Origin: a virus
DNA length: 53,854 nucleotides
Virus record (IMG/VR): IMGVR_UViG_3300025941_000004
Strand: one strand, 5' to 3'
Shown: positions 3,501-39,086 of the stretch, in pieces
Numbering within the stretch: the stretch's first letter is position 1
Layout of the letters: each line of letters starts with the position of its first letter
Program-made: the position numbers and the translations under genes
The notes under the pieces: model-generated
Told to the model about the DNA's origin: nothing
Seen by the model: only the letters and a program-made list of their open reading frames with translations
Databases searched by the model: none

Positions 3501-6500
3501 TACAGGCCGTTGACGGTGGTGGCCCGGTCGGTGAAGGTTCCGCCGTTCTTCAGGAAGTCCTTCATCGAGACGTCCAGTGGCAGCGGGATCCCGTTCTCCT
3601 TGCGCCACTTGCGTCGTGCGTCACGACGCTTGGCGACCTCGGAGACCGGAGCGGCTTTCGCTACGAGCCGGCCCGATACCCGCTGTCCACCGATCAGGTT
3701 GTCGAGGGATGCGCGCTGCAGGTCGAGGGTCACCGGGTCGGTGGCGATCAGCTGCTGCTCGTCGGAGACCGAGACGAACAGCCGGTTCGTGGTCTCGTCC
3801 ATCAGGTTCTGTGTGACCAGCACGTCCATCGACACCGGCAGGTCGAGGAGGTCGCGGGTGGCCGACTGGTAGGTGTGCATGTACCCGTCGAGGGCGAGCA
3901 GGTACAGCGGGTCGAACAGGTGGTCGGAGGTGAACGCGCCACCGAGCGATGTCTTGACCCACTCGTCCCAGGTCCCGGCCTTGATGTTGTTGTCCTCGAG
4001 CCCGGCCTTCGGCTGCCACTGTGGGGACCGGTGCTGGTTGGCACGGAAGATCGCCTGCAGGTCGTGGACGTGGAGCAGCGGCACCTCGGCTCCGACGACA
4101 GGGAGGTAGTTGTGGTTCACGTTCCAGGCGATGTCCTTGACCGCTTCGATCGCTGCGCTGCCGCTGACCTTACCGACGTCGTCGCCGTTGGCGTCGGTGC
4201 CGTGCGGCATCCCGAGTGTCTGCCGGACCCAGTAGTCGACGAGCTTCACCTGCAGCGGGTCGAGCCCGAGGGTCTGCATGACACTGACCGCGGCGGCGTT
4301 GTACTCGGTGCGCTGTGTAGCGGTCCATCCGTTCTCGTCGAGCTGCTTGATCTCGACCCGATCCTGGATGATGGCGTCACGGGCGAGGTCGATGCGCTCG
4401 GCCTCAGCCGGCGACGCCGCCTTCCAGAAGGATCCGGCGCGACGGTCCTCGAACGGGATGCCGGTCAGCATCCGCCACAGCCCGCCGTCCTCGGTGTCGC
4501 GGGCGTGCGGCTCGATGGTGGTGGAGGAGAACAGCTGGGCCTTCGCCACCTCGTAGGAGTGTGCGGTCAGCGCACCGGTCGCCTGGTAGGCGATGGCAGC
4601 AGAGTGCTGGCTGACGTTCGACCGGGTCGCCTCGTCGAACGACATCCCGTTGATGACGGGGTTGTCCCCGGCGGAGTGGGCCTCGGCGAACTGCAGGACG
4701 CCTACCTGGTTCTTCCTCGGGTCGGCGTGGCGGGACTCGAACCGCCACGACTTAGACATCGAGTAGCCGGTGCCGTCCTGGTTCGGGTTGTAGAACTGGG
4801 AGTTGATCCGCTCGTTGATCTCGTTGCGGAGATCGGAGTCCAGCCCGGAGTTGTCGAAGACCTGGGTGAAAAGAATCGGCATCTCGACCGACTTGTGGTC
4901 GATGCTGCTGGTCCTGTCGTTGAAGCCACCGGACTTCAGCACGTCCCCCACACGAGCACCGGGCGTCATCAGGTAGACGATCATCGAGGTGGCGATCTTC
5001 GCCTCCACCGATGCGGGGTCCGCCATGTTGTCGACCCACGACGGGTCGACTGTCTCGGCGTTGGTGAGGGCGAAGCCGTCGAGCTGGCTGCGCAGGGCCT
5101 CGGTGATCCGCTCGGAGTTGAGGATCTCGTCGGCTGCGGTGACCTGGATCCTCGGAGCCTGGGCTGCGATCAGCTTCAGGAAGTCGACGGCTGTGGTGGC
5201 GTCGACACCGAGGAAGGTGGCGACGTCGTCGGTGAAGTCGATGCCGAGGAACTTGAACGCCGACTGGTGGTCGACGATCATCCCGTCGGTCGACTCCTTG
5301 CTCATGGCGTCATCGAGGCTGCCGACGCCGTCGATGTCCCAGTTGGTGAGGAAGCCGTGCTCCTTGCCCTGGTAGGTGGGGAACTGGATGCGGTCGGGAC
5401 GGGCGGTGAGCTCGTACTTCTGCCCGTTCCACTCCAGGACCTTCTTGTCACCGAGAACCTGTAGGTCGATCTCGAGCCGGACGGACAGGCCGTAGTTGGA
5501 GCGCGGGTTGAACTCCACGACGGTCCCTGTGTGGGATGTAGCGTTCGGGTTGCGGGTCGAGGAGAACACGGCCATGTTCGCCGGCTCGTGCTTGGCGGGC
5601 CGGGTGACGCGCTTCTGTGTCATCACCTTGTCCCAGTCCGGCGCCTCGTGTCCGTGCCGGTACAGCAGCACGGTGTCGCCGGGTCCGACCAGCGGGATCA
5701 TGTCCCCGGTGCCGAAGTCGTCTCCGGCCTGGGGCAGGACGGAGCCGGCGTGCAGCTCGAGCCGGTCGATCATCCGGTCGAAGTAGAAGTCGAACTCGGT
5801 ATCGAGGTGGGCACGCTCGGCGGGTGTGAGCTTCTTGCCCTGCTCGGTCTCGGGACCGTGCGCCATGTCACGCAGCATCTGTCGGCCCTCGGGGTCGTTC
5901 TTGAAGCCGAGCACCTGGTTGCGGACCCGTGTGATCTGGGTCTTGTGGATCCGGTCGTCGGTCATCTCGTCGACCGGGACGTTGAACCCGGCCAGGTAGT
6001 TGGTCGGCACCAGGTTCAGGGTCTCCGCGATGGCGTGCAGACGCGGGTTCTTGAAGTCGACCCACAGCGAGCCTTCTTCGACGTTGAGCCCCTGGACGTT
6101 GAAGATCGCCAGGTGCGAACGGGGTGACACGCCACGAGTGGCGGTGAGCGAGGAGATCAGGGCCCGCTGGTTCTGGAACCGGGGTGTGGTGATCGCAGGC
6201 TGGTAGACGTGTCCCGAGCCGGCCATCCTGATGTAGTCGATGGACTCCATGAACTGGGTGGCCTCGACACGCATGTCAGCCTCACCGTCGGTGGCACCGA
6301 GGACGATGGTGGCACCCTGGTCCGCGATGTAGTCCAGACGCTCCCGCATCTTCGCGGCGTTACCACGGAACGAGTCGAGCTCGACGACGACCAGGTCGCC
6401 GGGTGCGATCCGCTTCGCACCCGAGGACGTGGACAGGGTGACCCCGGAGATCAGCCCTGCGTTCGCGTCGGACGCCTGGTCCTCGCGGAAGATCCAGCCG

Positions 6501-9500
6501 GACCGGCTGCCCTTGACCTCGAGTGCCGCCTCGAGCTCGTGGAGCAGCATCTTGGACAGCTCCATGTCCTTGTTCTTGCGGGAGCCGAAGAACGGCAGCC
6601 CGCCTGCCGTCCAGTCCATCGAGATGTTCTCGGCACGCAGCATCAGGTCCGCTGTCTGCAACGCACGACCCAGGTTGGTGCGCGGGTTCCAGCCGCCCTC
6701 ACCGGTCTGTCCGTTGTAGTTGGCGCGGTCGTCCCAGATCTCCTCGCGCTTCTCGGCGAGGTACCTGATCTTCGCCTCGTAGGCGTTGCGGGTCTTCTCG
6801 TCGAGGTAGGCACGGGTCTGCAGCGTCTGCTGCCGGGCACGGTTGGCGATCCTGGTCTCCGGCAACGGCTTCGACTCGCCGTTCAGCCCGTGCTTGAAGT
6901 TCTCCAGCATCTTGGTCGACACGCCCCGGTACGCGGGGACCTGGGACAGGTCGGCGGACAGCACGTCGTCGAAGACGCGGGTGGCACCCTGGGTGCCCTG
7001 CTCACCGAGCATCGAGTTCAGCACCGTGTCGGAGGGCATGTACAGCTTGGCGTCGTCGATGGGGAGCGCGACACCGGGGTTGGCCTGCTGCCAGGCGATC
7101 ACCTGCTCGGCGGTCCACACGAGCCGGTCGCCTGTGCCCTGTGCCTTGCCGACCACCAGGTGCTGAAGCTTCATGTCCTTGTAGACGGCGTTGTAGAACT
7201 CCGGCTCGAGCATCCCCTTCGAGCCCTTCTCGGGGTCACCGAGACCGAGCTGCTTGGTCAGCATCTCCTGGGTCTTCATCCGCAGCACATGGGACAGGTC
7301 GGTGGCCCAGTCGTTCTCGATGGCCTTGCGCTCGGCGTGGGTCATCGTCTCGATGACCTCGATGGCGGAGCGTCCGAGCTTCGAGGCGTCCAGGCCCCAC
7401 GCCTGCATCACCGGGTTGATGGAGCCTTCGGTGAACCAGAGCGTGGCGTTCAGGGACTCGGCCCGATCCGAGTCACGCTTGAAGCTGGTGCCCTCGAAGA
7501 ACAGGTTGTTGTACCAGGTGCGGCCCTTGTCGGACTCCTCCTGGGTCTCGACCGGCTGCATGTCGGGATGGAAGAACTCGATGTCAATGCCGGCCACGTC
7601 ACTCGGGTCGACACCGGAGGCTTCGAGCGCGACCTTCAGCCGGTCCAGGTGGATCTCCTTGTAGCCGGAGGCCACCGCGTTGTCGTTGGTGTGGAAGACG
7701 TGGCCGAGGTTCAGGTCCGAGGCCAGCAGGTCGATGGGTGTCGCGTCGAGGTAGGTTCCCGGCTGGTAGTGGCGCAGCATCACGCGGGCAGCGAAGCGGT
7801 TGTTCAGCTGTGCCAGTGGTCGCGCGACCGCACGGTCACCGGGATGGGTCACCTCGACGTCGTCGAACAGCGACCTGTTCAGGTCGCTGGCCTGCAGCGT
7901 GACCTTCGACAGCAGCTCGGCACCCGGTACCCGGAAGGTGCGCCTGGTGGCAGCCGACTTCGCTGCCTGACGCTTCGGCGCGTTGCCGGTCATCCCGATC
8001 ACCGGCTTTGCGGCGGCGGAGTCGAGCCGCTGGTTGGCCTCGATGGAGGCTCGTGGGATGTCCCCGGTCCACGGGCCGTACCGGAAGTCGGGGTACAGGT
8101 TCAGCTCGATGGTCTTCTTCAGCTCGGTCGGGCTGGGCGGGATGTCACCCTGCAGCCCGGCCCACCTGTGCATGTCCCGACCGGCCAGCAGCAGCGGCTT
8201 CGTCGGGTCCAGCAGCGTGTCGGCCAGGTAGGCGTACGACGTGTCGTAGTAGCGGGTGTTGTCGGGCCTGGTCGCGTCCGGGTACGGGGAGACCGAGATG
8301 CCACCGGAGCCCATCGACACGATGTCGTCGAGGAACACGGTGATGGTGGCACGCGACAGGTGGTTCCACTCCGAAGCCGACAGGTCCACCTGCCCGGAAC
8401 GGGACTTGTCCTCGAGCTGGCCGGACAGCTTCATCATGATCTGGATGGTGGACTGCGACTTCCGGCGGAACTTGTCCGGCGCGGACATGATGTACTGGAT
8501 GATCTCCCGCTGACGGTCGGTCTCGGTCAACGGATCGGAGTGGAAGGAGAACATGTCGACGGCCTGGCCGGCTGGGTCGTCGGAGCGCAGCAGCTCGACA
8601 CGGGCCTCGAACTTTTCAAGGTCGGCACGGGCGCCCAACGTCTCACGCTCGATCTTCTCGACCTCGTGGATGTCCAGGCCGGGCACGAGCTTCGCCTCGA
8701 TCTGGGTGATCTCGTCGTTCATCTCCCCGCGACGCTGTGCCACCAGCTGGTCCAGGGCAAGATCGGTGTAGGCGAACCGCGCGGCTGCCTCCTTGACGTC
8801 CTCACCGGGCCGGGCACCGAAGCCCAGCAGCCCTGCGGTGCGCTGGATCCGGCGTGCCGCATGAACCTCGGACATCACCTGCTTCAAGGTGGCGTCCCCG
8901 GTGCCGTCGGGGACCGAGGCGATGGCCGCGGCGTCCTGCACGATCTTCGCCACCGTGCGGAACGCCCGCTGCGCGGCACGCTCGATCTCGGAGGTGGACA
9001 GCGTGTGGTTCGCACCACTGGTCTCCGCGATCACGATGTCGTTGACGATCCGCTGCACCGAGAAGTGGCCCTTGTGGTTACGGGCGGTGGCTTCCAGCAT
9101 CGCGCAGTAACGCATCGCGGAGTCGTTGTCGATGCTGTTGTCGTGGGCGAACATCTTCTTGTAGTGGTCGCCCTCGAGCAGCGACTTCAGGTCCTTGCCG
9201 ACCAGCATCTGGGTGGTGAGCCTGCCTTCTGGGCCACGCTCCATCACCTGCGGGAACAGCACGGACCTGGCCATCGGCCTGGTGTCGGGGTTGGAGAACA
9301 GCGCCAGCGCCTTGGCCACCGACTCTGCTGTCGGGTTGCCCTCGGAGTCGACCGGCATCTCCCACTCGACCTGGCGTCCGTCGTCGTCCATCGTGACGAC
9401 GCCGTCCTTGGCGAGCTGCGACATGTTGCCGCTGATCGCGTCGAGGTTCACCGCCGTCATGGACGCCTTGAACCGCTCGTAGTTCGTGACGTAGTCGTAG

Positions 9501-12500
9501 GCGTCGCGCTGTGCGTCGAACGCACCAGCCGGGTCCACGTTGTCGGGGTTCTCGCCCTTGGTGTGGGCCTTCGGGTAGAACCCGCGGACCGCTCCGATGA
9601 CCTGGTACATCATCGCCTGCGGCCCGAGCCCCACGTTCATCTCGCGGGAGTTCTTCAGCGACGCCACGAACGCGTCGTAGAGCCTGCGGTCCTCGGTGGT
9701 GGCCGTGACATTGGGTGCGCCGGCGTCGGACTTCAGGACCCGCTCGATGGCGAGGTACACCTGGTTGTCGGACCGCTGGATGTTCTGCTCCTCGACCAGG
9801 TCCTTCTTCAGGTACTGGGCCCCGACCTCGAGGGAGGCGATCGCCTCACGCTGGGTCACGCCCTTCATGCCGGTCGACCAGCCACCGTTCGCCTTGTCCG
9901 CATCGAAGGCGGCGGAGTCGTCGTACCAGCCGACGATGGGTGCCTGGTTGCCACGGATCCCCGGCGTGGTGTTCACCCAGCGGAGGAACTGCTCCAGGTT
10001 CTTGGCGTTCTGGAGCTCGTGCATGAACTTCGTCATCAGCAGCCCGCCGTCTTGCTGCATCTGCGGAGACAGGTCGTACATGATCTTGAACATGCGGCGC
10101 TCGAGCTTGTTGTACCGGCGACCCTGGTGACCGTCCGCATCCTTCTCGGTACGGGCGTGCATGCCCAGTGACTCCCACTGGGCCAGCATCACGTTGCGCC
10201 AGTAGTGCATCTCCGCCTCGTCGGCGTTGGTGATGGTGAACATCTTGTAGACCCAGTTGGCGATGTACAGGTCGTCACCGCGACGCTCGAAGACGGCGTT
10301 CGCGGCGGCGTCCGGGATCAGCGCCATCACCTTCTCCGCGAACGTCGGGTTCTGGTCCAGCATCCGCTGCACCATGTCGAGGGTGAGCTCGTCGACACGA
10401 CGCCCGGACAGCTCGGAGAACTTGAACAGCGCCTCCCGGACATCCTTGTGCGAGTTCTTGAACGCCTCCGAGGCCCGGTAGTGCGCATCGGAGAACTCGC
10501 CGTTCAGGTGGTGCGCGTTGTAGTCGTTGCCGGTAGCGATCTTCTTGTCGAGGGTGATGCGGTTGTGGCCCACCGAGATGATCGAGTCGATGACGCTGCG
10601 GTACGGGGACACGTCGCCGGCTGCGACCTCGGCCACCGAGTACGGCATGTTTGCCGCCGACTCGCGTCCCAGGTAGGCGGCCTCGTTCTTCAGCTTGTAG
10701 TCCTCGGACTTCCGCTCGCCCTCGTCCTTGGCGGTGTAGAACCTGACGTACTGCTCCACACTGATGTGGGGTCCCATCAGTCCGGCTGCGTCACCGATCA
10801 GCGTGAACAGCTGGAACGCTCCGAACACCTCGACGAACGCCCGCTGCGCGTTCAGGCCGGAGCCCTTGACGCCCTGGCCGTCGGGCTTCGTCATCGCCCG
10901 CAGCCGGGCGTGCTTGGCCTGCAGCTCCGGTGAGATCTCGAAGATCGCGTCCTTGGCGACACGGTCCCGGCGCAGCTCCTGCTTCAGCAGCATCTGCGCC
11001 AACGTGATCTCACGTCCGGTGGTCGTCACGTTGCCGTCGGAGTCGATGTCGTAGTCGAGGACCGCGACGTTCGCCACCACCGCCATCGCCTGGGTCTGCG
11101 ACAGCGCCGGATCCAGGTCGGTGGCGTTGTCCGCGAGCGCCTTCAGCTGGGCGATCACCCGTGCCGTGATCTCGTCTACCCCATGCACCCGGTCCAGCTC
11201 GGACTGGGTCGCCATAGCCGACAGCAGCTCGTACTCGGAGGCGAGCGCATACAGCTCGGCACGCTGCGTCGGGTTCGCGGACGACTGCACGGAGGCGGAC
11301 AGGGAGGTGTAGTGGAGCTTCTGGAACTTGCGGAACATCAGGTCGCCGGCCAGCCAGTTCCCGATGGTCTGACCGGTGGTGGCGGACCGTGCGGCCCGGC
11401 GCTCCCGTGCCTCGGACACACGCTTCACCGGGCGGCCCTTCTTCACGGTCCCCGGTGTCGGGCCGAGCATCGCCCGGTAGGAGGCGTAGTCCTCCTGGAA
11501 CGCCTGGAACTGGGCCCGCACCAGCTGGTCCATCCACAGCCACTCGTTGCTCAGGTTGCCCCTGGCGAACGTGTTGATCGGACCGTCGGCCACCTCGAGC
11601 AGCCCGTCCATCAGGACGCTGCGGGCGTCACCGTCACCGGTACGCACCGCAGCGAAGAACTTGGCGAACACCGGATCGAGGATCTCGTCACCGATGATCG
11701 CCTCATACCGGTTGCGGATCGCCTCGGTGACCGACGTCATCGCACCCGTGGCGGCGTTCACCAGCGCCGGCTCCGTGGACGTCAACGCCTCCTGGATGTA
11801 CTGCACCACCCACTTCTCGTACTTCGGGGCCTTCACGTTCACGCTGGTGCCGGCCCCGAGGAAATGCATACCAGCACGAGCCGACACAAACATGTCCTCG
11901 TCCAGCAGCAGCTGGTTCTGGGTCCTGATCTTGTCGCCGTCGTAGTCGCCGCGGATCGCCGGAAGGATCGCGTGGCTGATCTCCAGGACGTTGTCGGAGT
12001 TCGACACCGTCAGCTTCAGTGACGCCTGCGGCACCAGCACCTGGTAGGAGCCCGACTGGTCCTGCGGGTCCCTGGTCACCACCTGGGACACGGCGCGCGC
12101 CAACGCCATCCGCTCCTCGTCGGTGGTCACCGGGACACCGTTCACATCACCGGCACGCCGGTTGAACGCGTCCCGGAGGAACTGGTTCAGCCCCTCGGTC
12201 TCCGCCGCACGGGCCGCAACCGAGGCGTTCGGGTCGTACATGCGACCCACCCGGTCGTCGATCTCGGCACCCAACGCCTGACCCAGCCGGATCATCTCGT
12301 TGATCTGCTTGGTCTGCTGCTGGATCTTCGCCAGGTCGTTCTGCAGCCCCTCGTCGGCGGGCTTCTTGTCGAGGTCGGCCTGCTTCAGCACCTCGTTGTT
12401 CTTCAGCAGCGTCAGCTGCTCGGTGATACCACGCATCCGGTTGCCGAAGTTCCGCATCAGCTGGGCACCGGAGGAGACCACCGCATCGGAGGGGACGCTG

Positions 12501-14770
12501 CCGCGCAGCAGCTGCCCGTTCGCATCGACCTGGCCGGCATCCTCGATCTGGGTGATGACGAACGGCTGGTCGGTGTGCGGCGCGGAGTTCTTCAACGACT
12601 CCGACCTGGACGTGTTGATCGCGTCGACCACCTTGTTCACGCCTGCGACACCTGCGGTGAAGTCCGCAGCCCGGTCGTCGGCGTACTTGGTGAACGCAGC
12701 CTTCGCGGTCTCCCGCTCAAGCTTCCCCATCTGCGCCTTCGCACGCTTCTCCGTCGGCGTCATCGACGCCAACGCCTCATCGGAGAGCACCTCGCCACCG
12801 GTCTGGAAGTAGTGAGCGATCTTCACCTGACCGTCCAGCTTCTCGTCCGCCGTCGGGGAGTGGGCGTTGATGCCCAGACCCATCCCGACACCACCGGCAG
12901 CCCCGTAGAGCCCCGAGTTCACCATGTCCTGCATGCTGCCCACGCCGTGACCGTGGGAGTACGACTCGAGCGCAGACTGGATCACCTCCTCGGTGCCCTC
13001 GCCGAACCCGTTCACCAGCGCCGTGGTGAACCGCCGCTCACCCTGGGCCATCGACTGTGCGGCCCGGTAGAAGTCGTCGGCCTTCAACGCACCCTGGCCG
13101 ACCTCCTTCCCGCGCAACGCGATCACCCGCGTGCTCAGACTCGAGATCGCCTCGGACGGAGCCAGCAGGGAGATCGTGCGGTACCTCTTGCCGACCACCT
13201 GCCCGACATCGTCGGTGATGTACCGGTAGCCCGACTCGATCTCCTCCTTGCCGCCGGCCTCGAGCGCAGCCTTCTGCGCCGCAGTCCTTCCACCGGCCCA
13301 CGTCGGCAGCACATCACGGGCCACCGCCCTACCCGAGACAGCCGTACCGAGAGTGCCTACGGCTCCCGGTGCGGCGCCCATCTGGCTGAGCCCCGCAGCC
13401 TCACGACCAGCCCACGACTTCGTCAACAGCCCTCTGGCGAGACCGATCTGCGCCACATCGACACCGATCTTCGCAATCCCAGCCGCACCCTGGGACGGGC
13501 TGAAGTGCCCCGCCTCGTCCTTGAAGACGTTGTCGAACCCGCCCTTGTTGTAGTCGAACTGGGAGCCACCGGTCAGCGCCAGCTCCGCCGTCTCCCCTGC
13601 GACAGTGGAACCCATCTGTGCCATGTACAGCCCGCGACCGATCGGGGACGCGAACTGCAGCGCACCGTCACCGAGCGCAGCACCGACATCGGCCACCTTC
13701 ACCCACGCCGGCGTCGTCGACTTCCCGGACTTGTCGGTCCGGTAGAACGCCGACTCGCCATCACCCACATCACCCTGGGACCAGTCGTACAGCCCCTGCT
13801 CGGTGTTCTGCAGCGGGGAGATCAACCGGCCCGCGAAACCACCCCACTGCTGGACACCGGTCGAGATCCCGGCACCGGAGCCGTACTGGTCCGTGGACAG
13901 CGCCGTGATCTCGTACGCCCTCGCAGCCTGCTCCGTCAGACTGTCCTTGTTCAGGAACGCGCCGACGCCACCGACCAGCGCACCGATGCCGGCACCCACC
14001 GGGGCACCCACCGCAGCACCCACACCGAAGAACGTCGAGCCAATCGCCGCACCGACACCTGTACCCAACGCCGCGCCACCCGCGGCACCACCCAGGATGA
14101 TCGCCTCATCGGTCGTTCCCTCCTCGAACTGGTGCGCCGTGTCCTTCACGTCCGCGTTGAACTCCATCGCCTTCAGCTGCTGCGGGATCTCGACGTTGTC
14201 CTTCTCCCGCTGCGCCTGAACCTCACGACCCAGGTGCTGCAACGGGTCGGAGGCCGAGAACGCGTGCGCCTTCTGGTCCTTGCTCAACGTCCACGTGGAC
14301 ATCGCAAGGTTCGCGGTGTTCTCGTCGAACCCGCCGTCCTTCTTGTCGTACATGTTGGCGACCTTGTCGCCGTTGACGTAGACATCCCCGTACTTGAACT
14401 GCGTCCCATCGGTACCTGTGTGATCCCAGGTGACGATTCCCGTCGCATGCTCCTGCTCGAAGTACGTGTTCGCCGTCCCCTCCTCCAACGCCTTGTTCCA
14501 CTTGGACATGTAGTCACTCACGAACTGGTTGTCATACCCGTTGTTCGTGCCGTCGAAGTTCGCACCCGTGTACCAGGACTGCGCTGCACCCGTGTACCCG
14601 ATCTCCGGGTCCGTCACCCACGCACCCAGCTTGGACGAGTCGTACATCGGGACGCCGGCGGCCACACCACCACCGGCCCGCGCAGCCTGCTGCATCCCCT
14701 CGGGGGCAGCAGGGTTCTGAGACTGACCCAGCCACGGCTGCAACGCACTCGAGTCGTACTTGCCCACCAC
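575..14770 (-). CDS. Giant virion-operon protein (4,731 aa) with RNA-polymerase-like two-barrel motifs, an N-terminal glycine-zipper segment and C-terminal hydrophobic segments
   Basis: Uninterrupted 14,196-nt ORF in the track. GTG start at 14770 (or 14767) follows GAGGAG. G/C-rich third positions throughout. It sits between the membrane/collagen genes and the portal gene in one co-directional operon. Confidence 0.85.
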   Translation of the reverse strand: MVGKYDSSALQPWLGQSQNPAAPEGMQQAARAGGGVAAGVPMYDSSKLGAWVTDPEIGYTGAAQSWYTGANFDGTNNGYDNQFVSDYMSKWNKALEEGTANTYFEQEHATGIVTWDHTGTDGTQFKYGDVYVNGDKVANMYDKKDGGFDENTANLAMSTWTLSKDQKAHAFSASDPLQHLGREVQAQREKDNVEIPQQLKAMEFNADVKDTAHQFEEGTTDEAIILGGAAGGAALGTGVGAAIGSTFFGVGAAVGAPVGAGIGALVGGVGAFLNKDSLTEQAARAYEITALSTDQYGSGAGISTGVQQWGGFAGRLISPLQNTEQGLYDWSQGDVGDGESAFYRTDKSGKSTTPAWVKVADVGAALGDGALQFASPIGRGLYMAQMGSTVAGETAELALTGGSQFDYNKGGFDNVFKDEAGHFSPSQGAAGIAKIGVDVAQIGLARGLLTKSWAGREAAGLSQMGAAPGAVGTLGTAVSGRAVARDVLPTWAGGRTAAQKAALEAGGKEEIESGYRYITDDVGQVVGKRYRTISLLAPSEAISSLSTRVIALRGKEVGQGALKADDFYRAAQSMAQGERRFTTALVNGFGEGTEEVIQSALESYSHGHGVGSMQDMVNSGLYGAAGGVGMGLGINAHSPTADEKLDGQVKIAHYFQTGGEVLSDEALASMTPTEKRAKAQMGKLERETAKAAFTKYADDRAADFTAGVAGVNKVVDAINTSRSESLKNSAPHTDQPFVITQIEDAGQVDANGQLLRGSVPSDAVVSSGAQLMRNFGNRMRGITEQLTLLKNNEVLKQADLDKKPADEGLQNDLAKIQQQTKQINEMIRLGQALGAEIDDRVGRMYDPNASVAARAAETEGLNQFLRDAFNRRAGDVNGVPVTTDEERMALARAVSQVVTRDPQDQSGSYQVLVPQASLKLTVSNSDNVLEISHAILPAIRGDYDGDKIRTQNQLLLDEDMFVSARAGMHFLGAGTSVNVKAPKYEKWVVQYIQEALTSTEPALVNAATGAMTSVTEAIRNRYEAIIGDEILDPVFAKFFAAVRTGDGDARSVLMDGLLEVADGPINTFARGNLSNEWLWMDQLVRAQFQAFQEDYASYRAMLGPTPGTVKKGRPVKRVSEARERRAARSATTGQTIGNWLAGDLMFRKFQKLHYTSLSASVQSSANPTQRAELYALASEYELLSAMATQSELDRVHGVDEITARVIAQLKALADNATDLDPALSQTQAMAVVANVAVLDYDIDSDGNVTTTGREITLAQMLLKQELRRDRVAKDAIFEISPELQAKHARLRAMTKPDGQGVKGSGLNAQRAFVEVFGAFQLFTLIGDAAGLMGPHISVEQYVRFYTAKDEGERKSEDYKLKNEAAYLGRESAANMPYSVAEVAAGDVSPYRSVIDSIISVGHNRITLDKKIATGNDYNAHHLNGEFSDAHYRASEAFKNSHKDVREALFKFSELSGRRVDELTLDMVQRMLDQNPTFAEKVMALIPDAAANAVFERRGDDLYIANWVYKMFTITNADEAEMHYWRNVMLAQWESLGMHARTEKDADGHQGRRYNKLERRMFKIMYDLSPQMQQDGGLLMTKFMHELQNAKNLEQFLRWVNTTPGIRGNQAPIVGWYDDSAAFDADKANGGWSTGMKGVTQREAIASLEVGAQYLKKDLVEEQNIQRSDNQVYLAIERVLKSDAGAPNVTATTEDRRLYDAFVASLKNSREMNVGLGPQAMMYQVIGAVRGFYPKAHTKGENPDNVDPAGAFDAQRDAYDYVTNYERFKASMTAVNLDAISGNMSQLAKDGVVTMDDDGRQVEWEMPVDSEGNPTAESVAKALALFSNPDTRPMARSVLFPQVMERGPEGRLTTQMLVGKDLKSLLEGDHYKKMFAHDNSIDNDSAMRYCAMLEATARNHKGHFSVQRIVNDIVIAETSGANHTLSTSEIERAAQRAFRTVAKIVQDAAAIASVPDGTGDATLKQVMSEVHAARRIQRTAGLLGFGARPGEDVKEAAARFAYTDLALDQLVAQRRGEMNDEITQIEAKLVPGLDIHEVEKIERETLGARADLEKFEARVELLRSDDPAGQAVDMFSFHSDPLTETDRQREIIQYIMSAPDKFRRKSQSTIQIMMKLSGQLEDKSRSGQVDLSASEWNHLSRATITVFLDDIVSMGSGGISVSPYPDATRPDNTRYYDTSYAYLADTLLDPTKPLLLAGRDMHRWAGLQGDIPPSPTELKKTIELNLYPDFRYGPWTGDIPRASIEANQRLDSAAAKPVIGMTGNAPKRQAAKSAATRRTFRVPGAELLSKVTLQASDLNRSLFDDVEVTHPGDRAVARPLAQLNNRFAARVMLRHYQPGTYLDATPIDLLASDLNLGHVFHTNDNAVASGYKEIHLDRLKVALEASGVDPSDVAGIDIEFFHPDMQPVETQEESDKGRTWYNNLFFEGTSFKRDSDRAESLNATLWFTEGSINPVMQAWGLDASKLGRSAIEVIETMTHAERKAIENDWATDLSHVLRMKTQEMLTKQLGLGDPEKGSKGMLEPEFYNAVYKDMKLQHLVVGKAQGTGDRLVWTAEQVIAWQQANPGVALPIDDAKLYMPSDTVLNSMLGEQGTQGATRVFDDVLSADLSQVPAYRGVSTKMLENFKHGLNGESKPLPETRIANRARQQTLQTRAYLDEKTRNAYEAKIRYLAEKREEIWDDRANYNGQTGEGGWNPRTNLGRALQTADLMLRAENISMDWTAGGLPFFGSRKNKDMELSKMLLHELEAALEVKGSRSGWIFREDQASDANAGLISGVTLSTSSGAKRIAPGDLVVVELDSFRGNAAKMRERLDYIADQGATIVLGATDGEADMRVEATQFMESIDYIRMAGSGHVYQPAITTPRFQNQRALISSLTATRGVSPRSHLAIFNVQGLNVEEGSLWVDFKNPRLHAIAETLNLVPTNYLAGFNVPVDEMTDDRIHKTQITRVRNQVLGFKNDPEGRQMLRDMAHGPETEQGKKLTPAERAHLDTEFDFYFDRMIDRLELHAGSVLPQAGDDFGTGDMIPLVGPGDTVLLYRHGHEAPDWDKVMTQKRVTRPAKHEPANMAVFSSTRNPNATSHTGTVVEFNPRSNYGLSVRLEIDLQVLGDKKVLEWNGQKYELTARPDRIQFPTYQGKEHGFLTNWDIDGVGSLDDAMSKESTDGMIVDHQSAFKFLGIDFTDDVATFLGVDATTAVDFLKLIAAQAPRIQVTAADEILNSERITEALRSQLDGFALTNAETVDPSWVDNMADPASVEAKIATSMIVYLMTPGARVGDVLKSGGFNDRTSSIDHKSVEMPILFTQVFDNSGLDSDLRNEINERINSQFYNPNQDGTGYSMSKSWRFESRHADPRKNQVGVLQFAEAHSAGDNPVINGMSFDEATRSNVSQHSAAIAYQATGALTAHSYEVAKAQLFSSTTIEPHARDTEDGGLWRMLTGIPFEDRRAGSFWKAASPAEAERIDLARDAIIQDRVEIKQLDENGWTATQRTEYNAAAVSVMQTLGLDPLQVKLVDYWVRQTLGMPHGTDANGDDVGKVSGSAAIEAVKDIAWNVNHNYLPVVGAEVPLLHVHDLQAIFRANQHRSPQWQPKAGLEDNNIKAGTWDEWVKTSLGGAFTSDHLFDPLYLLALDGYMHTYQSATRDLLDLPVSMDVLVTQNLMDETTNRLFVSVSDEQQLIATDPVTLDLQRASLDNLIGGQRVSGRLVAKAAPVSEVAKRRDARRKWRKENGIPLPLDVSMKDFLKNGGTFTDRATTVNGLYRALINLRVGTALLNPQLYVSMGPEQFVRGVLDRTANLLTMQSTAVSVGRKGQVKGLAGRQARLTERLADTTLGAGLSRLGLEAAYRPDQLVKLNKLYTVMGQRNDFKSMVYKELFFLRPHEPGVGKAERWLENYAKLGTKVQDPTWGTRANTLARRYMEAALSHIMATPTMNQLSVDRLIAEMATSPQFLKQNFPTAHEAGMNSVAQLRSLKPTPLSLTLRGIYEPLSESPNMGLAFLGNVVLKMPMLFSGYAVNVATTILGLQGLSDMTAMFLEGRKKGPNSLFGRVSAKIRGVQFDPEMDATFDMSSVLEGVDLSRSFIRGSLTHTGLFAFGMMAGGLGLSGEDDETKKRRRLAALQGAPVIYDPRRIENDFRNADAMFVDWLPPGIASMFRVTTDEAPGGARSMVQLNWVLKQFISPIMGMEKFYETGDFRNVGWGFEDALGAFPLINANTWDDAFQTAAELAQMADDQSKLGGAHNMPIAAGFLTNAVGVYEKMLFENAFINQIYVARDEYDRDPFVLPLRNASRELQGDAEGNPRPQNLSMESYIDPETGQIKQGYQTRSDSEATLHAFTENRFSLAVMSSLFAKMTGGTPDYFRTQMPEKLREIEKQPMTKQRAEAIVRSLSQAAGGTEALSLDELIYKIKGDAMASKNWNVYNNADKIARANYHPEMLEPLSVLDAQGHEVLTKAGARGIYQGLAKGSVKIGDDSLQGIFIPRDMRVQIQKEWTEELIQEGVDMGLDQTKATSRMKRIWYGPLSNPDALGIGDILWHKDISYDKSVVYKQLNTTYVMGPDGRPWATGFKRAGVLGAFGLKPYQEAYVSEQSATGNDSLLNTTDLVNGMNTGLRALQLVDKSSYIPTDVEIGKSIEKAIADAANKTYTPQQPYSNSNGNGYSRFPYHRYSGYGRRSYGGGGYSSSGYSQYNKMYALPGARAPFGDDIPFINTSSPFIRREDIHRERVWSERGRLKQWQ
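710..850 (-). other. Tyr/Gly/Ser/Arg-rich low-complexity C-terminal tail of the giant protein
   Basis: Translation NGNGYSRFPYHRYSGYGRRSYGGGGYSSSGYSQYNKMY. The plus strand shows gtagcc/gtagct repeats. Confidence 0.8.
2468..2812 (-). other. C-terminal hydrophobic (possible membrane-inserting) segments of the giant protein
   Basis: GLFAFGMMAGGLGLSG followed by EDDETKKRRR (2468-2515). MGLAFLGNVVLKMPMLFSGYAVNVATTILGLQGL (about 2700-2812). Confidence 0.55.
11891..12088 (-). other. Beta-prime-like barrel segment with DYDGD motif (codons 11933-11947, residues 942-946)
   Basis: VVTRDPQDQSGSYQVLVPQ...NVLEISHAILPAIRGDYDGDKI parallels bacterial beta-prime LNRAPTLHRLGIQAF...[21 protein letters not shown]. 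Reverse complement of 11933-11947 checked as GAC TAC GAC GGC GAC. Confidence 0.6.
13151..13192 (-). other. Beta-subunit-like basic loop GKRYRTISLLAPSE (residues 527-540)
   Basis: Resembles beta-barrel [17 protein letters not shown] (G, basic pair, I-S, then P and E at the same offsets). Short match only. Confidence 0.35.
13952..14101 (-). other. Glycine-zipper / Ala-Gly-rich hydrophobic segment of the giant protein (residues about 224-273)
   Basis: ILGGAAGGAALGTGVGAAIGSTFFGVGAAVGAPVGAGIGALVGGVGAF. Confidence 0.7.
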
Positions 14771-14811: not shown

Positions 14812-15291
14812 TCAATCAGCCACACAGACACTGACCGTCACATCCGTGTCGACCGGCGAACGCTGATGCAACGCAACAACCGCCACATGGAAGCCGGTCG
14901 GACAGATCGGACCAGCCGGACCCGGTATCCCCTGCTCACCGGTTCTACCGGTGCGACCGGGCCGTCCCGGCTTCCCCCTGAAGCCAGGACGACCCTGACG
15001 ACCCGCTGGTCCAGGCGCCCCCCGCACGCCTGGGCTACCGTTGACGCCGTCCACACCGTCGCGACCCGGATTCCCCGTACGGCCAACGCGACCCTGCGGA
15101 CCCTGGGGACCCTGCCGGCCACGCTCCCCCTGCTGGCCGGCAGGCCCTTGCGGTCCCGGTACTGAGACGACCGTAGTCACCTTCTGTGACGCAGGTTCAG
15201 AGGCTTCAGTCCCGACCATCGCAGCACCGAACGCCAAGACTGCCAGGGCACCGGCTGCGATGTAGCCGAACGGGGAACGCGTGAGGATCAC
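14812..15291 (-). CDS. Membrane-anchored collagen-like protein (159 aa)
   Basis: N-terminal hydrophobic helix FGYIAAGALAVLAFGAAMV, then about 30 G-X-Y triplets (GPQGPAGQQGERGRQGPQGPQGRVGRTGNPGRDG...). GTGA start/stop overlap with the upstream gene. Confidence 0.8.
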   Translation of the reverse strand: MILTRSPFGYIAAGALAVLAFGAAMVGTEASEPASQKVTTVVSVPGPQGPAGQQGERGRQGPQGPQGRVGRTGNPGRDGVDGVNGSPGVRGAPGPAGRQGRPGFRGKPGRPGRTGRTGEQGIPGPAGPICPTGFHVAVVALHQRSPVDTDVTVSVCVAD

Positions 15292-15740: not shown

Positions 15741-15900
15741 CAATATAAACAACATAAACAAAAGAAACAATCTATTCCCCCTTATTATATATATATATGG
15801 GTATTAGGATCCATTTGGAATGTAATAAGTGAAACATTTGTTTCGTTTGGTTGATTTCTTTTTGGTTGGTTATCACAGTGGTAACTGATGTCTCATGTGA
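15741..15900. promoter_or_regulatory. AT-rich island with phased A-tracts and a (TA)6 run. Candidate divergent promoter region, DNA-unwinding element or genome end.
   Basis: My hand count gives 48 G+C in 160 nt (about 30%) in an otherwise GC-rich genome. ATAAACAA-like units at 15744, 15754 and 15764 (10-bp phase). TATATATATATAT at 15786-15798. Confidence 0.5.
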
Positions 15901-15913
15901 CTTAGGAGTCAAC

Positions 15914-16147
15914 ATGGATTTTGGAGATGCGCTCAAGGCTAGCGTTATCGCTGGCATGGATCCCATGAATGGGATGATGCGCTCGCTGATGGCGTCGACT
16001 ATTCGTGAGAAGTCGGTTGTTGTCGATGGTCAGGTCATGGACAACATGGATCGGTTGCGTAAGGCAATCGAGGAGATGAAGTCTGCTGGTTCGGACCAGA
16101 AGATCATCGACGCTTATCAGCGTATGCTGGACAACTACACGAAGTAG
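15914..16147 (+). CDS. Hypothetical Met-rich small protein (77 aa), low-GC gene
   Basis: AGGAG at 15904-15908, ATG at 15914. Translation MDFGDALKASVIAGMDPMNGMMRSLMAS... Confidence 0.6.
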   Translation: MDFGDALKASVIAGMDPMNGMMRSLMASTIREKSVVVDGQVMDNMDRLRKAIEEMKSAGSDQKIIDAYQRMLDNYTK

Positions 16148-16161
16148 TTGGGATCGAGTGT

Positions 16162-16198
16162 GGCTTCCAGCTTATGCTGGGAGTCATGCTCTTTTTTT
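16162..16198 (+). terminator. Candidate terminator after the 77-aa gene
   Basis: 10-bp stem (two G-U pairs) GGCTTCCAGC-TTAT-GCTGGGAGTC. A T7 run at 16192-16198 lies 6 nt downstream. Confidence 0.4.
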
Positions 16199-16223
16199 CA
16201 CAATGCGTATGCGTTGATGAGAA

Positions 16224-16243
16224 GACACAACATGACACAACAT
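16224..16243. repeat. Tandem direct repeat GACACAACAT x2
   Basis: Read directly at 16224-16233 and 16234-16243. Confidence 0.9.
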
Positions 16244-16346
16244 ACTTTCACCTAGTCTCGTGACGTTTGCGCCCAGGCTACTGGGCGAGGGATTGTCACA
16301 AGACAAGGTGTGCATGCGCAATGTGGTTGTTAGAGCATGACGGATT

Positions 16347-16408
16347 TTATGACACAGTCATAATGTGGTTTGCCACGCTCGATCATATTCTTATCGCAAT
16401 GCATTGCG
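16347..16408. promoter_or_regulatory. Two perfect palindromes in the non-coding leader: TTATGAC-ACA-GTCATAA (16347-16363) and CGCAATGCATTGCG (16395-16408)
   Basis: Read directly. A related CAATGCG-TAT-GCGTTG lies at 16201-16216. Confidence 0.6.
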
Positions 16409-16492: not shown

Positions 16493-16715
16493 GGTGTGTA
16501 GACACCTGGTGTAGTCACCCTGTGTACAACTGCATCTGTGCAGGTCAGGCGGTGCATGTGGTGTGTAGACACCTTCTCGTATCTAACCTCATCCCTAGGT
16601 GTATGTTGTACACCTTCTGGTGAGATTGGTATGTGAAGGCTGTCTACATGCACCATGTGCCGTCTGACCTGCACGTTTGCAGTTGTACACAGGGTGTCTA
16701 CATGGGGTGTCTACA
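16493..16715. promoter_or_regulatory. Motif array A: 9-mer TGTAGACAC / GTGTCTACA, 4 perfect and 2 one-mismatch copies, sorted by orientation
   Basis: TGTAGACAC at 16497 and 16564, each inside the 15-mer GGTGTGTAGACACCT. TGTAGTCAC at 16510. CTGTCTACA at 16640. GTGTCTACA at 16694 and 16707 (GGGTGTCTACAT x2, 13-bp period). The array ends 57 nt before the RHH gene ATG. Confidence 0.75.
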
Positions 16716-16771
16716 TCCCTGTTTGCCGGCGATTCATTGCAGCATTCGTACACATCGTGTACGTTGTGTCC

Positions 16772-17128
16772 ATGACTATGAACACAACGATCACTGCTCG
16801 TGTTGCCGCCGACGTGCGCTCGTCTCTCGAGACAGCTGCACGTCTGAAGGGCTGGACTCTGTCCAAGTACGTGGACCACGTACTCACCACACATGTGGTG
16901 GACCTTGGGATGTTGAGTCCGGCCAGCATTGGTCCGGTCCGTCACAACGCTTTGCCTGACTCGAAGTATGTGCGAGCTCAGGTACTCGCTGATCTTCAGC
17001 GAGAGTATGAGGCTTTCATCGAGCGAGGCGTTGATCCTCGTCAAGCGAGGGCCAACACCGAAGCGATGGTAGCCATGTATGCATCGAGAGGCGTGTCTAT
17101 CTCATTCGATGATCTAGGTGTGGAGTAA
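16772..17128 (+). CDS. Ribbon-helix-helix (Arc/MetJ/CopG-type) DNA-binding protein (118 aa)
   Basis: N-terminus MTMNTTITARVAADVRSSLETAARLKGWTLSKYVDHVL fits the strand-helix-helix pattern. The track start at 16655 was rejected because that extension translates the repeat array. Confidence 0.55.
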   Translation: MTMNTTITARVAADVRSSLETAARLKGWTLSKYVDHVLTTHVVDLGMLSPASIGPVRHNALPDSKYVRAQVLADLQREYEAFIERGVDPRQARANTEAMVAMYASRGVSISFDDLGVE

Positions 17129-27474: not shown

Positions 27475-27644
27475 CCGCGCTCGAGTTCTACATCGAGGAG
27501 CTGCGTGCAGCACTCGCTGACAACGACACGCGGAAGATCCGCCGGATAGCGCTCAGCGTGATCCACGCCTACGACGCGGAACAGGAGGAAGCAGATGAGC
27601 AGCGGCAGAGCGCAGACGATGCAGCTGGTGAAGGACCTGCGTAA
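27471..27644 (+). CDS. Possible 57-aa ORF overlapping the HicA-like gene start by 50 nt
   Basis: ATGA-coupled to the upstream gene. Translation MTALEFYIEELRAALADNDTRKIRRIALSVIHAYDAEQEEADEQ... Below the track threshold. Confidence 0.3.
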   Translation: MTALEFYIEELRAALADNDTRKIRRIALSVIHAYDAEQEEADEQRQSADDAAGEGPA

Positions 27645-27795
27645 GCAGGGGTTCGAGGTGGAGCGCACGGGGTCGGGTCACTGGAAGGTGACCCACCCTG
27701 CGCGGGGTGGGTGTGTGGTGATGGCGTTCAGCCCCAGCCATACCGGCCAGCACCTGACGCTGAAGCGTCTGAGGAAACTGGGGTACCGGCCATGA
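27595..27795 (+). CDS. HicA-like (mRNA-interferase fold) protein (66 aa)
   Basis: AGGAGGAA upstream. LVKDLRKQGFEVERTGSGHWKVTHP...VVMAFSPSH...LKRLRKLGY fits the HicA pattern (xGF...GSxH...vp.H). Confidence 0.6.
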   Translation: MSSGRAQTMQLVKDLRKQGFEVERTGSGHWKVTHPARGGCVVMAFSPSHTGQHLTLKRLRKLGYRP

Positions 27796-29527: not shown

Positions 29528-29550
29528 CCACCGGGATGAAAGGAGCACGC

Positions 29551-30942
29551 ATGCTAGAGCCCAAGACCCGGAAGGAGCTGGCTACCTATGCCTTCAGTCT
29601 CGCTTCCGGTCATCAGCTGGTGCGCCACCGTGGCGTCACCTATATCCCTGCTGACTATGAGACCCGTGACGTGTCCGTTCCACCGGACATCGACCGTACC
29701 ATGTGGTTGCCGCTGAGCCTGGAACAGGTGGAGCGGATGGCTGCCGACGAGTTCGACATCTTGTTCGCCAACTCCTCGGAGCTGGTGAACTACGACTACA
29801 TGGTGGCGCAGAACGCCAGTCACAACGACAAGCCGGTGACGTCGTTGCTGGTCAGGACCCAAGCAGGGTTGAGAGAGCTGGATCACCGTGGTGATCTGGT
29901 GGCACCGAGTGGGGACTTCCGTCCCAACACGTTGGTGCCGATGCTGAACGAGGACAAGGCCGACAAGGACTACGTCTTCGAGGTTGTGTCGGGTTGGCTC
30001 AACTCCGACGAGGAGGCCGAGTCGTTCCTGAAGCACCTGGCGTCCAGCCTGTCACCAGGCTGGTCGGCAGTGAAGTACATCCTGCTGATCGGTGAGGGCA
30101 GGAACGGGAAGTCTGTGGCGTTGAAGATGCTGCAGCACCTGTTCGGTGCGGAGAACGTGTCGAGTGTGACTCGGCAGATGATCTCCGAGCAGAGCCCGGT
30201 GGTCACCGAGCTCAACGGGAAACTGCTGAACATCGTCTTCGACGGTCAGGCGGTGTACCTGAAGGACAGTGGAACGGAGAAGTCCCTGATCGCGGGTGAG
30301 CCCGTGTCGATCAGGAAGCTGTACGAGTCCAAGTCGACGCAGGTGCAGACGAACGCCTTGTTCCTCGAGGGTCTGAACCGTGAGCCGAAGACGAGCGACA
30401 AGTCTGCTGCCCTGCAGAAGCGGTTGGTCCGGTTCCAGTTCCCGAACGTGTACCGGCTGGACCACCGGTTCGAGCGGCGGATGCTGAGCGAGCGGATGCT
30501 CGGTGCGCTGCTGTCGCTGCTGGTCGACCGCTACATCCTCGAGGATGCGGTGGCCGGCGAGCTGGCGCCGACGAGTCGTGCGCTCGAGCTGCAGCTTGAG
30601 CAGATGCTGGTGAACTCCACGGGTCTGCAGTACTTGAAGTACGTGGAGGACACCGAGCCGAACGGGGTGAACTCCCTGTTCGGTGAGGAGTTCAGTGTGG
30701 TCGTGACGGGGTTCAAGTCGTGGCGGCTGCACACCGAGAACGATCTCGGTGGTTGGTCCGAGCCCGACGTGTTCGCTCAGTTCCAGCCGTTGCTGGAGAC
30801 CGAGCGGAAGTCGGTGAGGTCCAACGAGAAGGTGAGCAAGGTCAGGTTCGTGGTCGGCTTGAAGGAGGAGGCGGCTGCGTTCATGGAGACACAGAGAGCG
30901 GAGGATCCACATGACGACATCACTGCCTTGGTGGAGGACTGA
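29551..30942 (+). CDS. D5/P4-type superfamily 3 helicase (463 aa)
   Basis: Walker A LIGEGRNGKS, Walker B-like LLNIVFDG. AGGAG upstream of ATG 29551. Confidence 0.7.
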   Translation: MLEPKTRKELATYAFSLASGHQLVRHRGVTYIPADYETRDVSVPPDIDRTMWLPLSLEQVERMAADEFDILFANSSELVNYDYMVAQNASHNDKPVTSLLVRTQAGLRELDHRGDLVAPSGDFRPNTLVPMLNEDKADKDYVFEVVSGWLNSDEEAESFLKHLASSLSPGWSAVKYILLIGEGRNGKSVALKMLQHLFGAENVSSVTRQMISEQSPVVTELNGKLLNIVFDGQAVYLKDSGTEKSLIAGEPVSIRKLYESKSTQVQTNALFLEGLNREPKTSDKSAALQKRLVRFQFPNVYRLDHRFERRMLSERMLGALLSLLVDRYILEDAVAGELAPTSRALELQLEQMLVNSTGLQYLKYVEDTEPNGVNSLFGEEFSVVVTGFKSWRLHTENDLGGWSEPDVFAQFQPLLETERKSVRSNEKVSKVRFVVGLKEEAAAFMETQRAEDPHDDITALVED

Positions 30943-31759
30943 CGTCTACGACACCGAGGAACGGAACGTGGCGTTCATGAACTACGCCGGACCGAAGGGC
31001 ACCGCCCTGGTAAGGGTGTGGCCTGATGGTCGGACCGATACAGGCTGGGGACTTACGTCCACGTCCGGTCCGGGGTTCATGGAGAAGTACATGCGTGGCG
31101 AGTTCGACGAGCGTCGCATCCTGTACGGCTACCGCCGCGGCAGGTGGGCGTACGCCTACGTGATGCGGTCGGTGCTGCTGGTGTGCATCGACATCGACGG
31201 GAAGAACGGTGGGCTCGACCATGCCAAGAGGCTGGGCGTGCTGCCGCCGACGATGGCGGAGACGTCGAAGTCGGGAGACGGGTACCACCTGTTCTACGTC
31301 GTCGACGACAAGTGGGATGCGGTCAAGGGCTACGGCCTGCTGAACGATCGCATCGGTGTCGAGCAGGGCGTGGACTTCCGGGCGACCGGATGCGTCTACC
31401 ACTACGACACGCAGAGGTGGAACGGGAGGCAACCGGCCAAGCTGCCGGACCACCTGTTCCAGATCTTGAACGCACGCGATCAGAAGATCGCTGCGACCGC
31501 AGCCAGGATCACGAAGGTCCTGGCGAACGAGGATGAGATGGAGGTATTGATGATGCACGACGAGATCATCGACGACCTGAAGAAGCCGATGCCGCAGGGG
31601 AAGCGCAACCAGACCCTGTTCGCCATCGGCAGCCAGATGCAGCAGGCGCAGATCCCTGGCTGGGAGGAGCTGCTGCAGGACAGGGCGCTCGATGTCGGCC
31701 TGCCGGCGGACGAGGTCGCCAAGCTGGTGGCCAACATCAACAAGTACGGCCTGCCGTGA
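30911..31759 (+). CDS. Archaeo-eukaryotic-type primase-polymerase (PrimPol) with PriCT-like C-terminus (282 aa)
   Basis: CIDIDGKNGG (DxD), SGDGYHLFY, GVDFRATGCVYHY. C-terminal GKRNQTLFAIGSQM. Confidence 0.75.
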   Translation: MTTSLPWWRTDVYDTEERNVAFMNYAGPKGTALVRVWPDGRTDTGWGLTSTSGPGFMEKYMRGEFDERRILYGYRRGRWAYAYVMRSVLLVCIDIDGKNGGLDHAKRLGVLPPTMAETSKSGDGYHLFYVVDDKWDAVKGYGLLNDRIGVEQGVDFRATGCVYHYDTQRWNGRQPAKLPDHLFQILNARDQKIAATAARITKVLANEDEMEVLMMHDEIIDDLKKPMPQGKRNQTLFAIGSQMQQAQIPGWEELLQDRALDVGLPADEVAKLVANINKYGLP

Positions 31760-31974
31760 GCGACCCGATGGACTGGCAGCCCAAGATCGGCCAGGAAGTG
31801 TATGTCCTTGACCCGCTTGGGTATGAGGGCTACGCGGAGGTCGAAGAGGTTCAGCTGAAGCCACACCATTCGGTGCGGGTGAAGATGAAGAGCATCGTCG
31901 ACCGGACTGACCAGAGCAAGGTGGGCCAGTCCGTATGGGTACTCACCGGTCACGTTCACCTGGTGACGTCATGA
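31756..31974 (+). CDS. Hypothetical protein (72 aa)
   Basis: GTGA overlap. Track ORF. Confidence 0.5.
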   Translation: MSDPMDWQPKIGQEVYVLDPLGYEGYAEVEEVQLKPHHSVRVKMKSIVDRTDQSKVGQSVWVLTGHVHLVTS

Positions 31975-39055: not shown

Positions 39056-39086
39056 TTTCGGCACCGCCCAGCGGTACGGTGAGGCC

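Follow-up and report, generated by a model that had tools for sequence, protein, structure and literature searches.

Two palindromic repeat arrays proposed as replication origins in the genome of a podophage allied to the Burro phages and to Microbacterium cluster EK

The DNA analysed here, called the window in the following, is the complete IMG/VR record IMGVR_UViG_3300025941_000004 with a length of 53,854 nucleotides. Comparison of its two ends revealed that positions 1-127 are exactly repeated at positions 53728-53854. The identity of these 127 bases indicates a circularly closed assembly and a genome of 53,727 bp. The window therefore represents a complete podophage genome of 53.7 kb with a GC content of 63.7%, and its kin are the Microbacterium phages of cluster EK and the Burro phages. 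The large terminase (33932-35392) is 71% identical to the terminase of Microbacterium phage Araxxi, and the order of genes is that of the cluster EK and Burro podophages, including a giant gene of 4731 codons (575-14770, minus strand) that takes up about one quarter of the genome. Directly upstream of the giant gene, a collagen-like protein with Gly-X-Y repeats is encoded (14812-15291, minus strand; Pfam Collagen, E=1.6e-15). Scans for Rfam families and tRNAs yielded nothing.

Two intergenic regions of this genome contain arrays of the same short repeat, designated A and B. Array A lies in a low-GC intergenic region of 1.2 kb. On one side it is flanked by a small low-GC gene on the plus strand (15851-16147), which has its own strong intrinsic terminator consisting of a 16-bp stem and a run of seven T residues (16156-16191). 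Relatives and Araxxi (gp26) contain a small gene in equal position and orientation. The stretch of highest AT content in the genome, 15744-15860 with 22-27% GC, is found beside the gene at 15851-16147. On the other side of array A, a rightward early/replication operon begins, and its first gene (16772-17128, plus strand) specifies a putative ribbon-helix-helix (RHH) protein of 118 aa. Array B is located between a leftward packaging operon, whose first gene is 37994-38749, and a rightward lysis cassette (39087-39975). Judged from the orientation of these genes, the promoters of both units must fall within the interval 38750-39086. The lysis cassette, which is inverted and adjoins array B, encodes an M23 peptidase (39417-39818) and a small membrane protein; the endolysin gene of Araxxi, unlike this cassette, is placed within the structural operon.

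The repeat is by far too frequent to be obtained by chance. The exact 9-mer GTGTCTACA occurs 15 times against 0.31 expected copies, and none of 100 shuffled sequences reached this number. It is the commonest 9-mer of the window and is confined to 16497-16715 (array A) and 38821-39055 (array B). When the 53.8 kb were scanned with the 10-mer GGTGTCTACA and up to one mismatch, six copies were detected in array A, twelve in array B, and two elsewhere, so that the total of 18 copies given in the original prediction was right. All copies listed there for array A are present in the sequence. The leftward copies TGTAGACAC at 16497 and 16564 are each contained in the identical 15-mer GGTGTGTAGACACCT (16493-16507 and 16560-16574), 67 bp apart, and the variants TGTAGTCAC and CTGTCTACA are located at 16510 and 16640, respectively. 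Rightward exact copies of GTGTCTACA are found at 16694 and 16707. Position 16715 marks the end of the final copy, as predicted shortly before the ATG of the RHH gene at 16772-16774, with 56 nt between them. The heptamer TGTACAC, previously regarded as a degenerate relative of the repeat, is also present, but the positions 16608 and 16685 given for it were off by one; it occupies 16607-16613 and 16684-16690, and a third TGTACAC is located on the minus strand at 16522-16528.

The copies of array A were described as sorted by orientation. This is indeed seen, but the sorting is part of an imperfect inverted repeat of 75 nt. Its arms, 16497-16571 and 16641-16715, are 81% complementary and separated by 69 nt. 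Array B constitutes a larger palindrome with its centre at 38943. Thus, both arrays are large imperfect palindromes with an AT-rich centre and copies directed outward, and each arm contains one copy of a further element, CTGACCTG. The four half-arrays can be aligned with each other. From the AT-rich centre outward, one or two inner copies are followed by one CTGACCTG, then by approximately 10-20 nt, sometimes including an inverted copy, and finally by two to four tandem copies with a spacing of 11-13 bp, which are directed at the flanking gene.

In array A, the outer left repeats on the minus strand (16497-16519) consist of GGTGTCTACA at 16497-16506 and the A variant GGTGACTACA at 16510-16519, spaced by 13 bp. 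They are followed by CTGACCTG at 16541-16548 (minus strand) and by an inner left repeat at 16564-16573 (minus strand) matching GGTGTCTACA exactly. The centre, 16574-16638, comprises 65 nt with 43% GC. It is a candidate DNA-unwinding region and includes the TGTACAC at 16607-16613. On the plus strand, the right arm contains an inner repeat at 16639-16648 (GCTGTCTACA, one mismatch), CTGACCTG at 16664-16671, and two outer exact copies of GGTGTCTACA at 16693-16715, again with a spacing of 13 bp. In array B, four outer left repeats with an exact spacing of 12 bp are located at 38821-38866, CTGACCTG at 38886-38893, and a pair of inner repeats spaced by 9 bp at 38899-38917, all on the minus strand. 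The centre, 38918-38968, has 51 nt with 35% GC and belongs to the five 50-nt windows of lowest GC content in the genome. The right arm begins with an inner pair spaced by 9 bp (38969-38987, plus strand), continues with CTGACCTG at 38993-39000 (plus strand), and ends with outer repeats at 39009-39055, of which one is inverted (39009-39018, minus strand) and three are in tandem (39023, 39034, and 39046). Array B therefore has six copies per arm and array A three, with single inner copies.

The element CTGACCTG occurs once per half-array (16541, 16664, 38886, and 38993), while its number in the whole window, six versus 3.8 expected, is not above chance. It is kept in most arrays of relatives, in genomes with either form of the repeat described below. 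A function of CTGACCTG as a -35 element was considered and dismissed, since by our reading no -10 element is located at a workable distance.

To find related arrays, IMG/VR was scanned for tandem copies, followed by protein-anchored retrieval. Many of the relatives obtained are uncultured, and these uncultured relatives keep arrays of the same type at both positions. Array B is retained in front of genes homologous to 37994 (52-99% identity), and array A at the equivalent position in at least 12 contigs. In some genomes the copies read GGTGACTACA, and several contain the two forms side by side within one array, from which the site is deduced to be GGTG(T/A)CTACA. The idea that the T and A variants might serve as a specificity switch was rejected for the same reason, because both are mixed in single arrays of L026, L362, and others. 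In four genomes (L009, L010, L016, and L020), array B lies between co-oriented genes and the inverted inner pairs are still retained. The palindrome is thus not a mere by-product of divergent promoters, and an explanation as their simple reflection is not supported by these genomes. Three further candidates were set aside: L005 and L013 contain coding tandem repeats, and L019 only a short run of two or three copies. The original prediction that one factor coordinates both loci is in part borne out by these comparisons, as the same motif and the same layout of half-arrays are present at both and are kept in relatives whose proteins show only about 52-58% identity.

Megablast searches with both array regions against cultured phages gave no match, and cultured relatives were reached solely via protein searches. 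In these phages, arrays with other motifs were detected. Araxxi, Arete, and Burro contain nine to eleven copies of AGGTAACG at the position equivalent to array A, Alex44 an array of GCGAACCGCC, and MissAmericana an array of CTCGTTAC. All three motifs differ from that of the window. Like array A, the arrays of these five phages are located between the small gene on the side of the giant gene and the early operon, which is leftward in their genomes, and those of Araxxi, Arete, Burro, and Alex44 show, like the window, inverted inner copies flanking an AT-rich centre that measures about 50-90 nt. In Araxxi, a single array was detected as compared to two in the window, and its second element is CCATGCGAGACATGG instead of CTGACCTG. 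This small palindrome, or close variants of it, recurs among the repeats of EK1 and Burro-type arrays (Alex44, L036, 2500-2840; Araxxi, L001, 18586-18726), where it occupies the place held by CTGACCTG in the lineage of the window. A scan of viral contigs for tandem AGGTAACG was too unspecific to be informative. A single host strain served for the isolation of Araxxi and Alex44, and their array motifs are unrelated, which indicates that the phage and not the host encodes the factor recognising the motif. A literature search revealed no description of these arrays, and the cluster EK section of the genome paper is silent on these repeats (PMC7302621).

A candidate for such a reader is encoded in the replication module. 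The gene at 29536-30942 (plus strand) specifies an SF3 (D5-like) helicase (Pfam DUF5906, E=1.7e-8), a relative of the Rep proteins of staphylococcal pathogenicity islands (SaPIs), and is adjoined by a primase-polymerase gene (30911-31759, plus strand; Pfam Prim-Pol). Also in this module, a small gene at 27595-27795 resembles HicA toxin genes just under the Pfam cut-off, and a gene at 31935-32147 encodes a zinc-finger DNA-binding domain (Phage_zn_bind_8). Among PDB sequences, the sole significant match of the helicase was 7OLA, the primase-helicase of SaPI5 (E=1.3e-7 in a single-sequence search, 3.7e-10 with a profile). An AlphaFold model built on 37 homologues (pLDDT 81) was matched by Foldseek to 7OLA_C with E=3.8e-10 and TM scores of 0.57 and 0.62 over approximately 450 alignment columns. 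At its C-terminal end, the model exhibits two helices (386-401 and 409-416) followed by a beta-hairpin (420-442), with pLDDT values of 85-94. This predicted helix-helix-beta-hairpin arrangement of residues 380-445 (30673-30870, plus strand) is, by our reading of the secondary structure, winged-helix-like; the PDB profile search gave no sequence match over this region.

Comparison of the helicases revealed a relationship between this segment and the repeats. Among the genomes for which the array motif could be assigned, 11 contigs with arrays of the GGTG(T/A)CTACA type, one of them with the variant GTGACTGC, have a helicase C-terminal domain like that of the window. Seven genomes with CGTTAC-type arrays share a second type, and Alex44 has a third. 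For residues 380-445, identity is 48-49% within a class and 22% between classes. The respective values for the N-terminus are 49-51% and 38%, and for the ATPase core 69-73% and 62%, with overlapping ranges in the case of the core. Several helicases of the CGTTAC class are 66-68% identical to the window helicase in the core, as compared to 62-67% for distant members of its own class, but in the C-terminal domain they reach only 24-27% against 38-47% for the same class. On the basis of these sequence comparisons, the C-terminal segment tracks the class of the repeat and the ATPase core does not. The screen covered the helicase and the proteins encoded within about 10 kb of array A, and no other early protein in this range showed a comparable break between classes. 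Two of them, the small proteins 20084 (a zinc ribbon) and 18688, were dismissed as binders, since they are absent from several genomes carrying the motif. The classes of repeats largely coincide with lineages, so that the tracking is partly confounded by phylogeny, and another protein following the motif could exist.

From these data, the arrays are best explained as two replication origins, and the GGTG(T/A)CTACA copies as iterons to which the helicase of the phage would bind. We consider this reading moderately probable. Each array would represent an origin-like module, A at 16.5 kb and B at 38.9 kb. The iterons would be bound by the winged-helix-like C-terminal domain of the SF3 helicase, one helicase hexamer would assemble per arm, the AT-rich centre would melt, and replication would run bidirectionally from there. 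With six copies per arm, array B would offer as many sites on each side as a hexamer has binding domains. In accordance with this reading, inverted inner copies flank a centre of 35-43% GC in a genome of 63.7%, and tandem copies with a spacing of 11-13 bp are placed outside. The minimum of the cumulative GC skew at 15.8 kb is near array A, which is weak evidence for an origin.

The closest known system is the origin of SaPIs. It consists of six to twelve short iterons around an AT-rich centre with at least two opposed iterons per side, and the iterons are bound by the C-terminal winged helix of a self-loading Rep helicase (PMC9371898). The arrays of the window conform to this pattern, with three copies on either side of the AT-rich centre in A and six in B, in opposed orientations. 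The window also encodes an SF3/D5-like helicase with a predicted C-terminal DNA-recognition domain, which is a relative of PriRep5 of SaPI5 by sequence (Pfam and PDB sequences) and by predicted fold (Foldseek), as well as a primase. There are also clear differences. The iterons of the window are about 10 bp long instead of 5-6, two arrays are present per genome, each arm contains the additional conserved element CTGACCTG, and the genome is that of a lytic actinobacterial podophage and not of a satellite. In addition, a SaPI origin is located directly downstream of rep, whereas the helicase gene of the window starts 12.8 kb after array A and ends 7.9 kb before array B.

A second system for comparison is phage P4 with its two loci ori and crr. 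According to Ziegelin and Lanka, these are reportedly separate loci sharing one octamer-type iteron in both orientations, which is said to be recognised by the origin-binding domain at the C-terminus of the alpha primase-helicase. Like P4, the window has two loci with one short iteron in both orientations. While P4 combines the functions of primase, helicase, and origin binding in a single polypeptide, the primase-polymerase and the helicase of the window are specified by separate genes, and its two arrays look equivalent, unlike crr, which is an accessory cis element. Iteron origins of self-loading SF3 helicases are therefore already known from SaPIs and P4. New would be their presence in lytic actinobacterial podophages, the occurrence of two arrays, and the extra element.

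Several observations do not fit easily with two origins. The conserved element CTGACCTG is not accounted for, array A has just three copies per arm with single inner copies, and the extreme of the GC skew in Araxxi does not coincide with its array. Moreover, array B must overlap two promoters, and this arrangement is explained equally well by operators. The main rival is that the repeats are operators. A transcription factor specified by the phage, distinct from the RHH protein, would bind cooperatively at the early promoter (array A) and the packaging and lysis promoters (array B) and switch them jointly. Both arrays are intergenic and located where promoters must lie: the promoter of the early operon is needed between the terminator at 16156-16191 and position 16772, and packaging operon and lysis cassette diverge from the interval containing array B. 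The outer tandem copies face the downstream gene in all half-arrays, and a distance of 11-13 bp between copies is commonly seen where proteins bind cooperatively to one face of the helix. On the other hand, the palindromic core is kept between co-oriented genes, the left arm of array A is not directed at any gene, and no DNA-binding protein encoded near the array tracks the motif, 20084 and 18688 being missing from several carriers. A sigma-70-like promoter was not detected in 16493-16715 or 38750-39090, but this search was weak, as it covered the E. coli-type consensus only. Since the C-terminal domain of the helicase does track the class of the motif, replication origins are favoured over a transcriptional switch, and we regard operators as possible but unlikely. 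The two functions may overlap. As the arrays are situated in intergenic regions bearing promoters, binding of the helicase may also affect transcription. For the coordination of transcription proposed originally, one shared reader is probable, but its identification with the RHH protein is not supported.

The arrays could also be clusters of promoters for a phage-specific transcription machinery, in which the giant virion protein might serve as an RNA polymerase upon injection. The giant protein contains the sequence GDYDGDK at residues 940-946, similar to the motif at the catalytic site of two-barrel RNA polymerases, and no sigma-70 promoters were detected in the arrays. Despite the presence of the DYDGD motif, Pfam and PDB searches gave no support for a polymerase. 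Copies 9-13 bp apart in both orientations are unlike promoters, and the arrays precede early as well as late genes. The homologue of the giant protein in Burro is reported to be associated with the virion, but according to the same paper there is no similarity to the virion polymerase of N4 (PMC7302621). Such promoter clusters appear very unlikely.

Two further assignments, either as pac sites recognised by the small subunit of a terminase or as DnaA boxes of the host in clusters, are taken together as highly improbable. The motif resembles the actinobacterial DnaA box TTGTCCACA at seven of nine positions. All 18 copies, however, have a T where the DnaA box consensus, TTGTCCACA or TTATNCACA, has a C, and the unrelated motifs in phages of one host strain argue against a host factor. 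With respect to packaging, array B is located upstream of the operon containing the large terminase gene, and in an unrelated phage (L022, see below) a similar array is found upstream of terS. Genomes of cluster EK are circularly permuted (PMC9584313) and therefore require a pac site. A genome with two pac sites, including one in the early region, is improbable, and phages of the Burro type do not have an array near the terminase gene.

The weakest explanation is the one suggested at first sight by the arrangement of the genes, namely that the adjacent RHH protein binds GTGTCTACA in both arrays and controls early, packaging, and lysis genes. Binding to arrays of short repeats is known for several RHH proteins, among them ParR, omega, and CopG, and the window resembles parC, the omega heptads, and the CopG sites in having short repeats spaced by about one helical turn, direct and inverted, beside a small RHH-like gene located 56 nt downstream of array A. 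The protein shows a weak match to Pfam TacA1 (E=0.02; 15.3 bits, under the cut-off of 21), and its N-terminal pattern TITARV...LSKYV is RHH-like by eye. A partition ATPase was not seen among the window proteins scanned against Pfam. Searches for related RHH proteins in PDB sequences gave no match, those among 5.8 billion proteins yielded only the query itself, and searches with peptide patterns revealed no locus. The sole homologue found, with 39% identity, is encoded in L024 next to an array consisting purely of the A variant. In L021/L023, a close relative, an array of 11 copies is located directly upstream of the next gene and the RHH gene is missing; L014 has too little space next to its array to accommodate it, and no match was detected in the array regions of other relatives. 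Unlike known RHH repeat systems, the gene is therefore absent from most genomes keeping the array, and the expected co-occurrence of repeat and RHH gene fails. The predicted link is thus largely refuted by the comparative data, and control of the arrays by the RHH protein is very improbable. Assigning the repeats to the neighbouring RHH gene is an attractive solution, but it is most likely wrong and is corrected here.

The RHH gene appears to be accompanied by a different sequence. Copies of GTACAC/GTGTAC number five in array A of the window and three in L024, but zero or one in ten other arrays. In both RHH-bearing genomes, they are present in the centre of the array and just upstream of the RHH start codon, where the window contains the inverted repeat CGTACAC-ATC-GTGTACG (16748-16764). 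It is these palindromes and not GTGTCTACA that co-occur with the RHH gene. As they are clustered just in these two genomes, TGTACAC is read as the operator of the RHH protein itself, and the sites at 16522, 16607, and 16684 together with 16748-16764 are probably its set of operators. With two genomes as its basis, this comparison suggests that the RHH gene is a lineage-specific accessory insertion and not the conserved partner of the array.

A more speculative and rather improbable extension would combine these elements. The arrays would be origins and promoter hubs at once, loading of the helicase onto six plus six iterons would couple the start of replication to the switch from early to packaging and lysis genes, CTGACCTG would be a promoter or an origin-activating element, and the RHH protein would act as a lineage-specific brake via TGTACAC in the origin centre.

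Replication origins have previously not been described for the actinobacterial podophages of cluster EK and the Burro type. Should the interpretation as helicase-bound origins be correct, testable origins and a domain determining initiator specificity would become available for a group of phages that is abundant in metagenomes, in which 815 homologues of the helicase were detected at E<=1e-20. The matched classes of iterons and winged helices would represent a natural series for the evolution of initiator specificity, and the components could serve as parts for building replicons for Microbacterium.

Two further elements were noticed during these searches. In L022 (IMGVR_UViG_3300017963_001691), an unrelated low-GC phage, a TGTAGACAC-type array surrounds an AT-rich centre at 1450-1918. 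It is located directly downstream of a primase-helicase gene with BT4734_N and VapE domains and upstream of a putative small terminase gene, a placement that corresponds to the SaPI arrangement and speaks in favour of the origin reading. In a screen for a common binder, no protein shared by L022 and the window was detected, and similarity between the profile of the window helicase and the L022 primase-helicase was limited to the Walker A region. The second element, a non-coding sequence of about 45 nt at 16252-16290 within a conserved block (16190-16365), follows the terminator of the small gene and precedes array A. It has no match in Rfam and consists of CTAGTC.CGTGACG.TTGCGC and a hairpin of 7 bp, possibly with an outer stem. 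Its conservation extends to 22 different genomes, among them Araxxi, Burro, Arete, and MissAmericana, and both iteron classes are represented. The element could function as a structured RNA or as a site recognised in the DNA; three pairs of the hairpin show compensatory changes, and no pair is broken.
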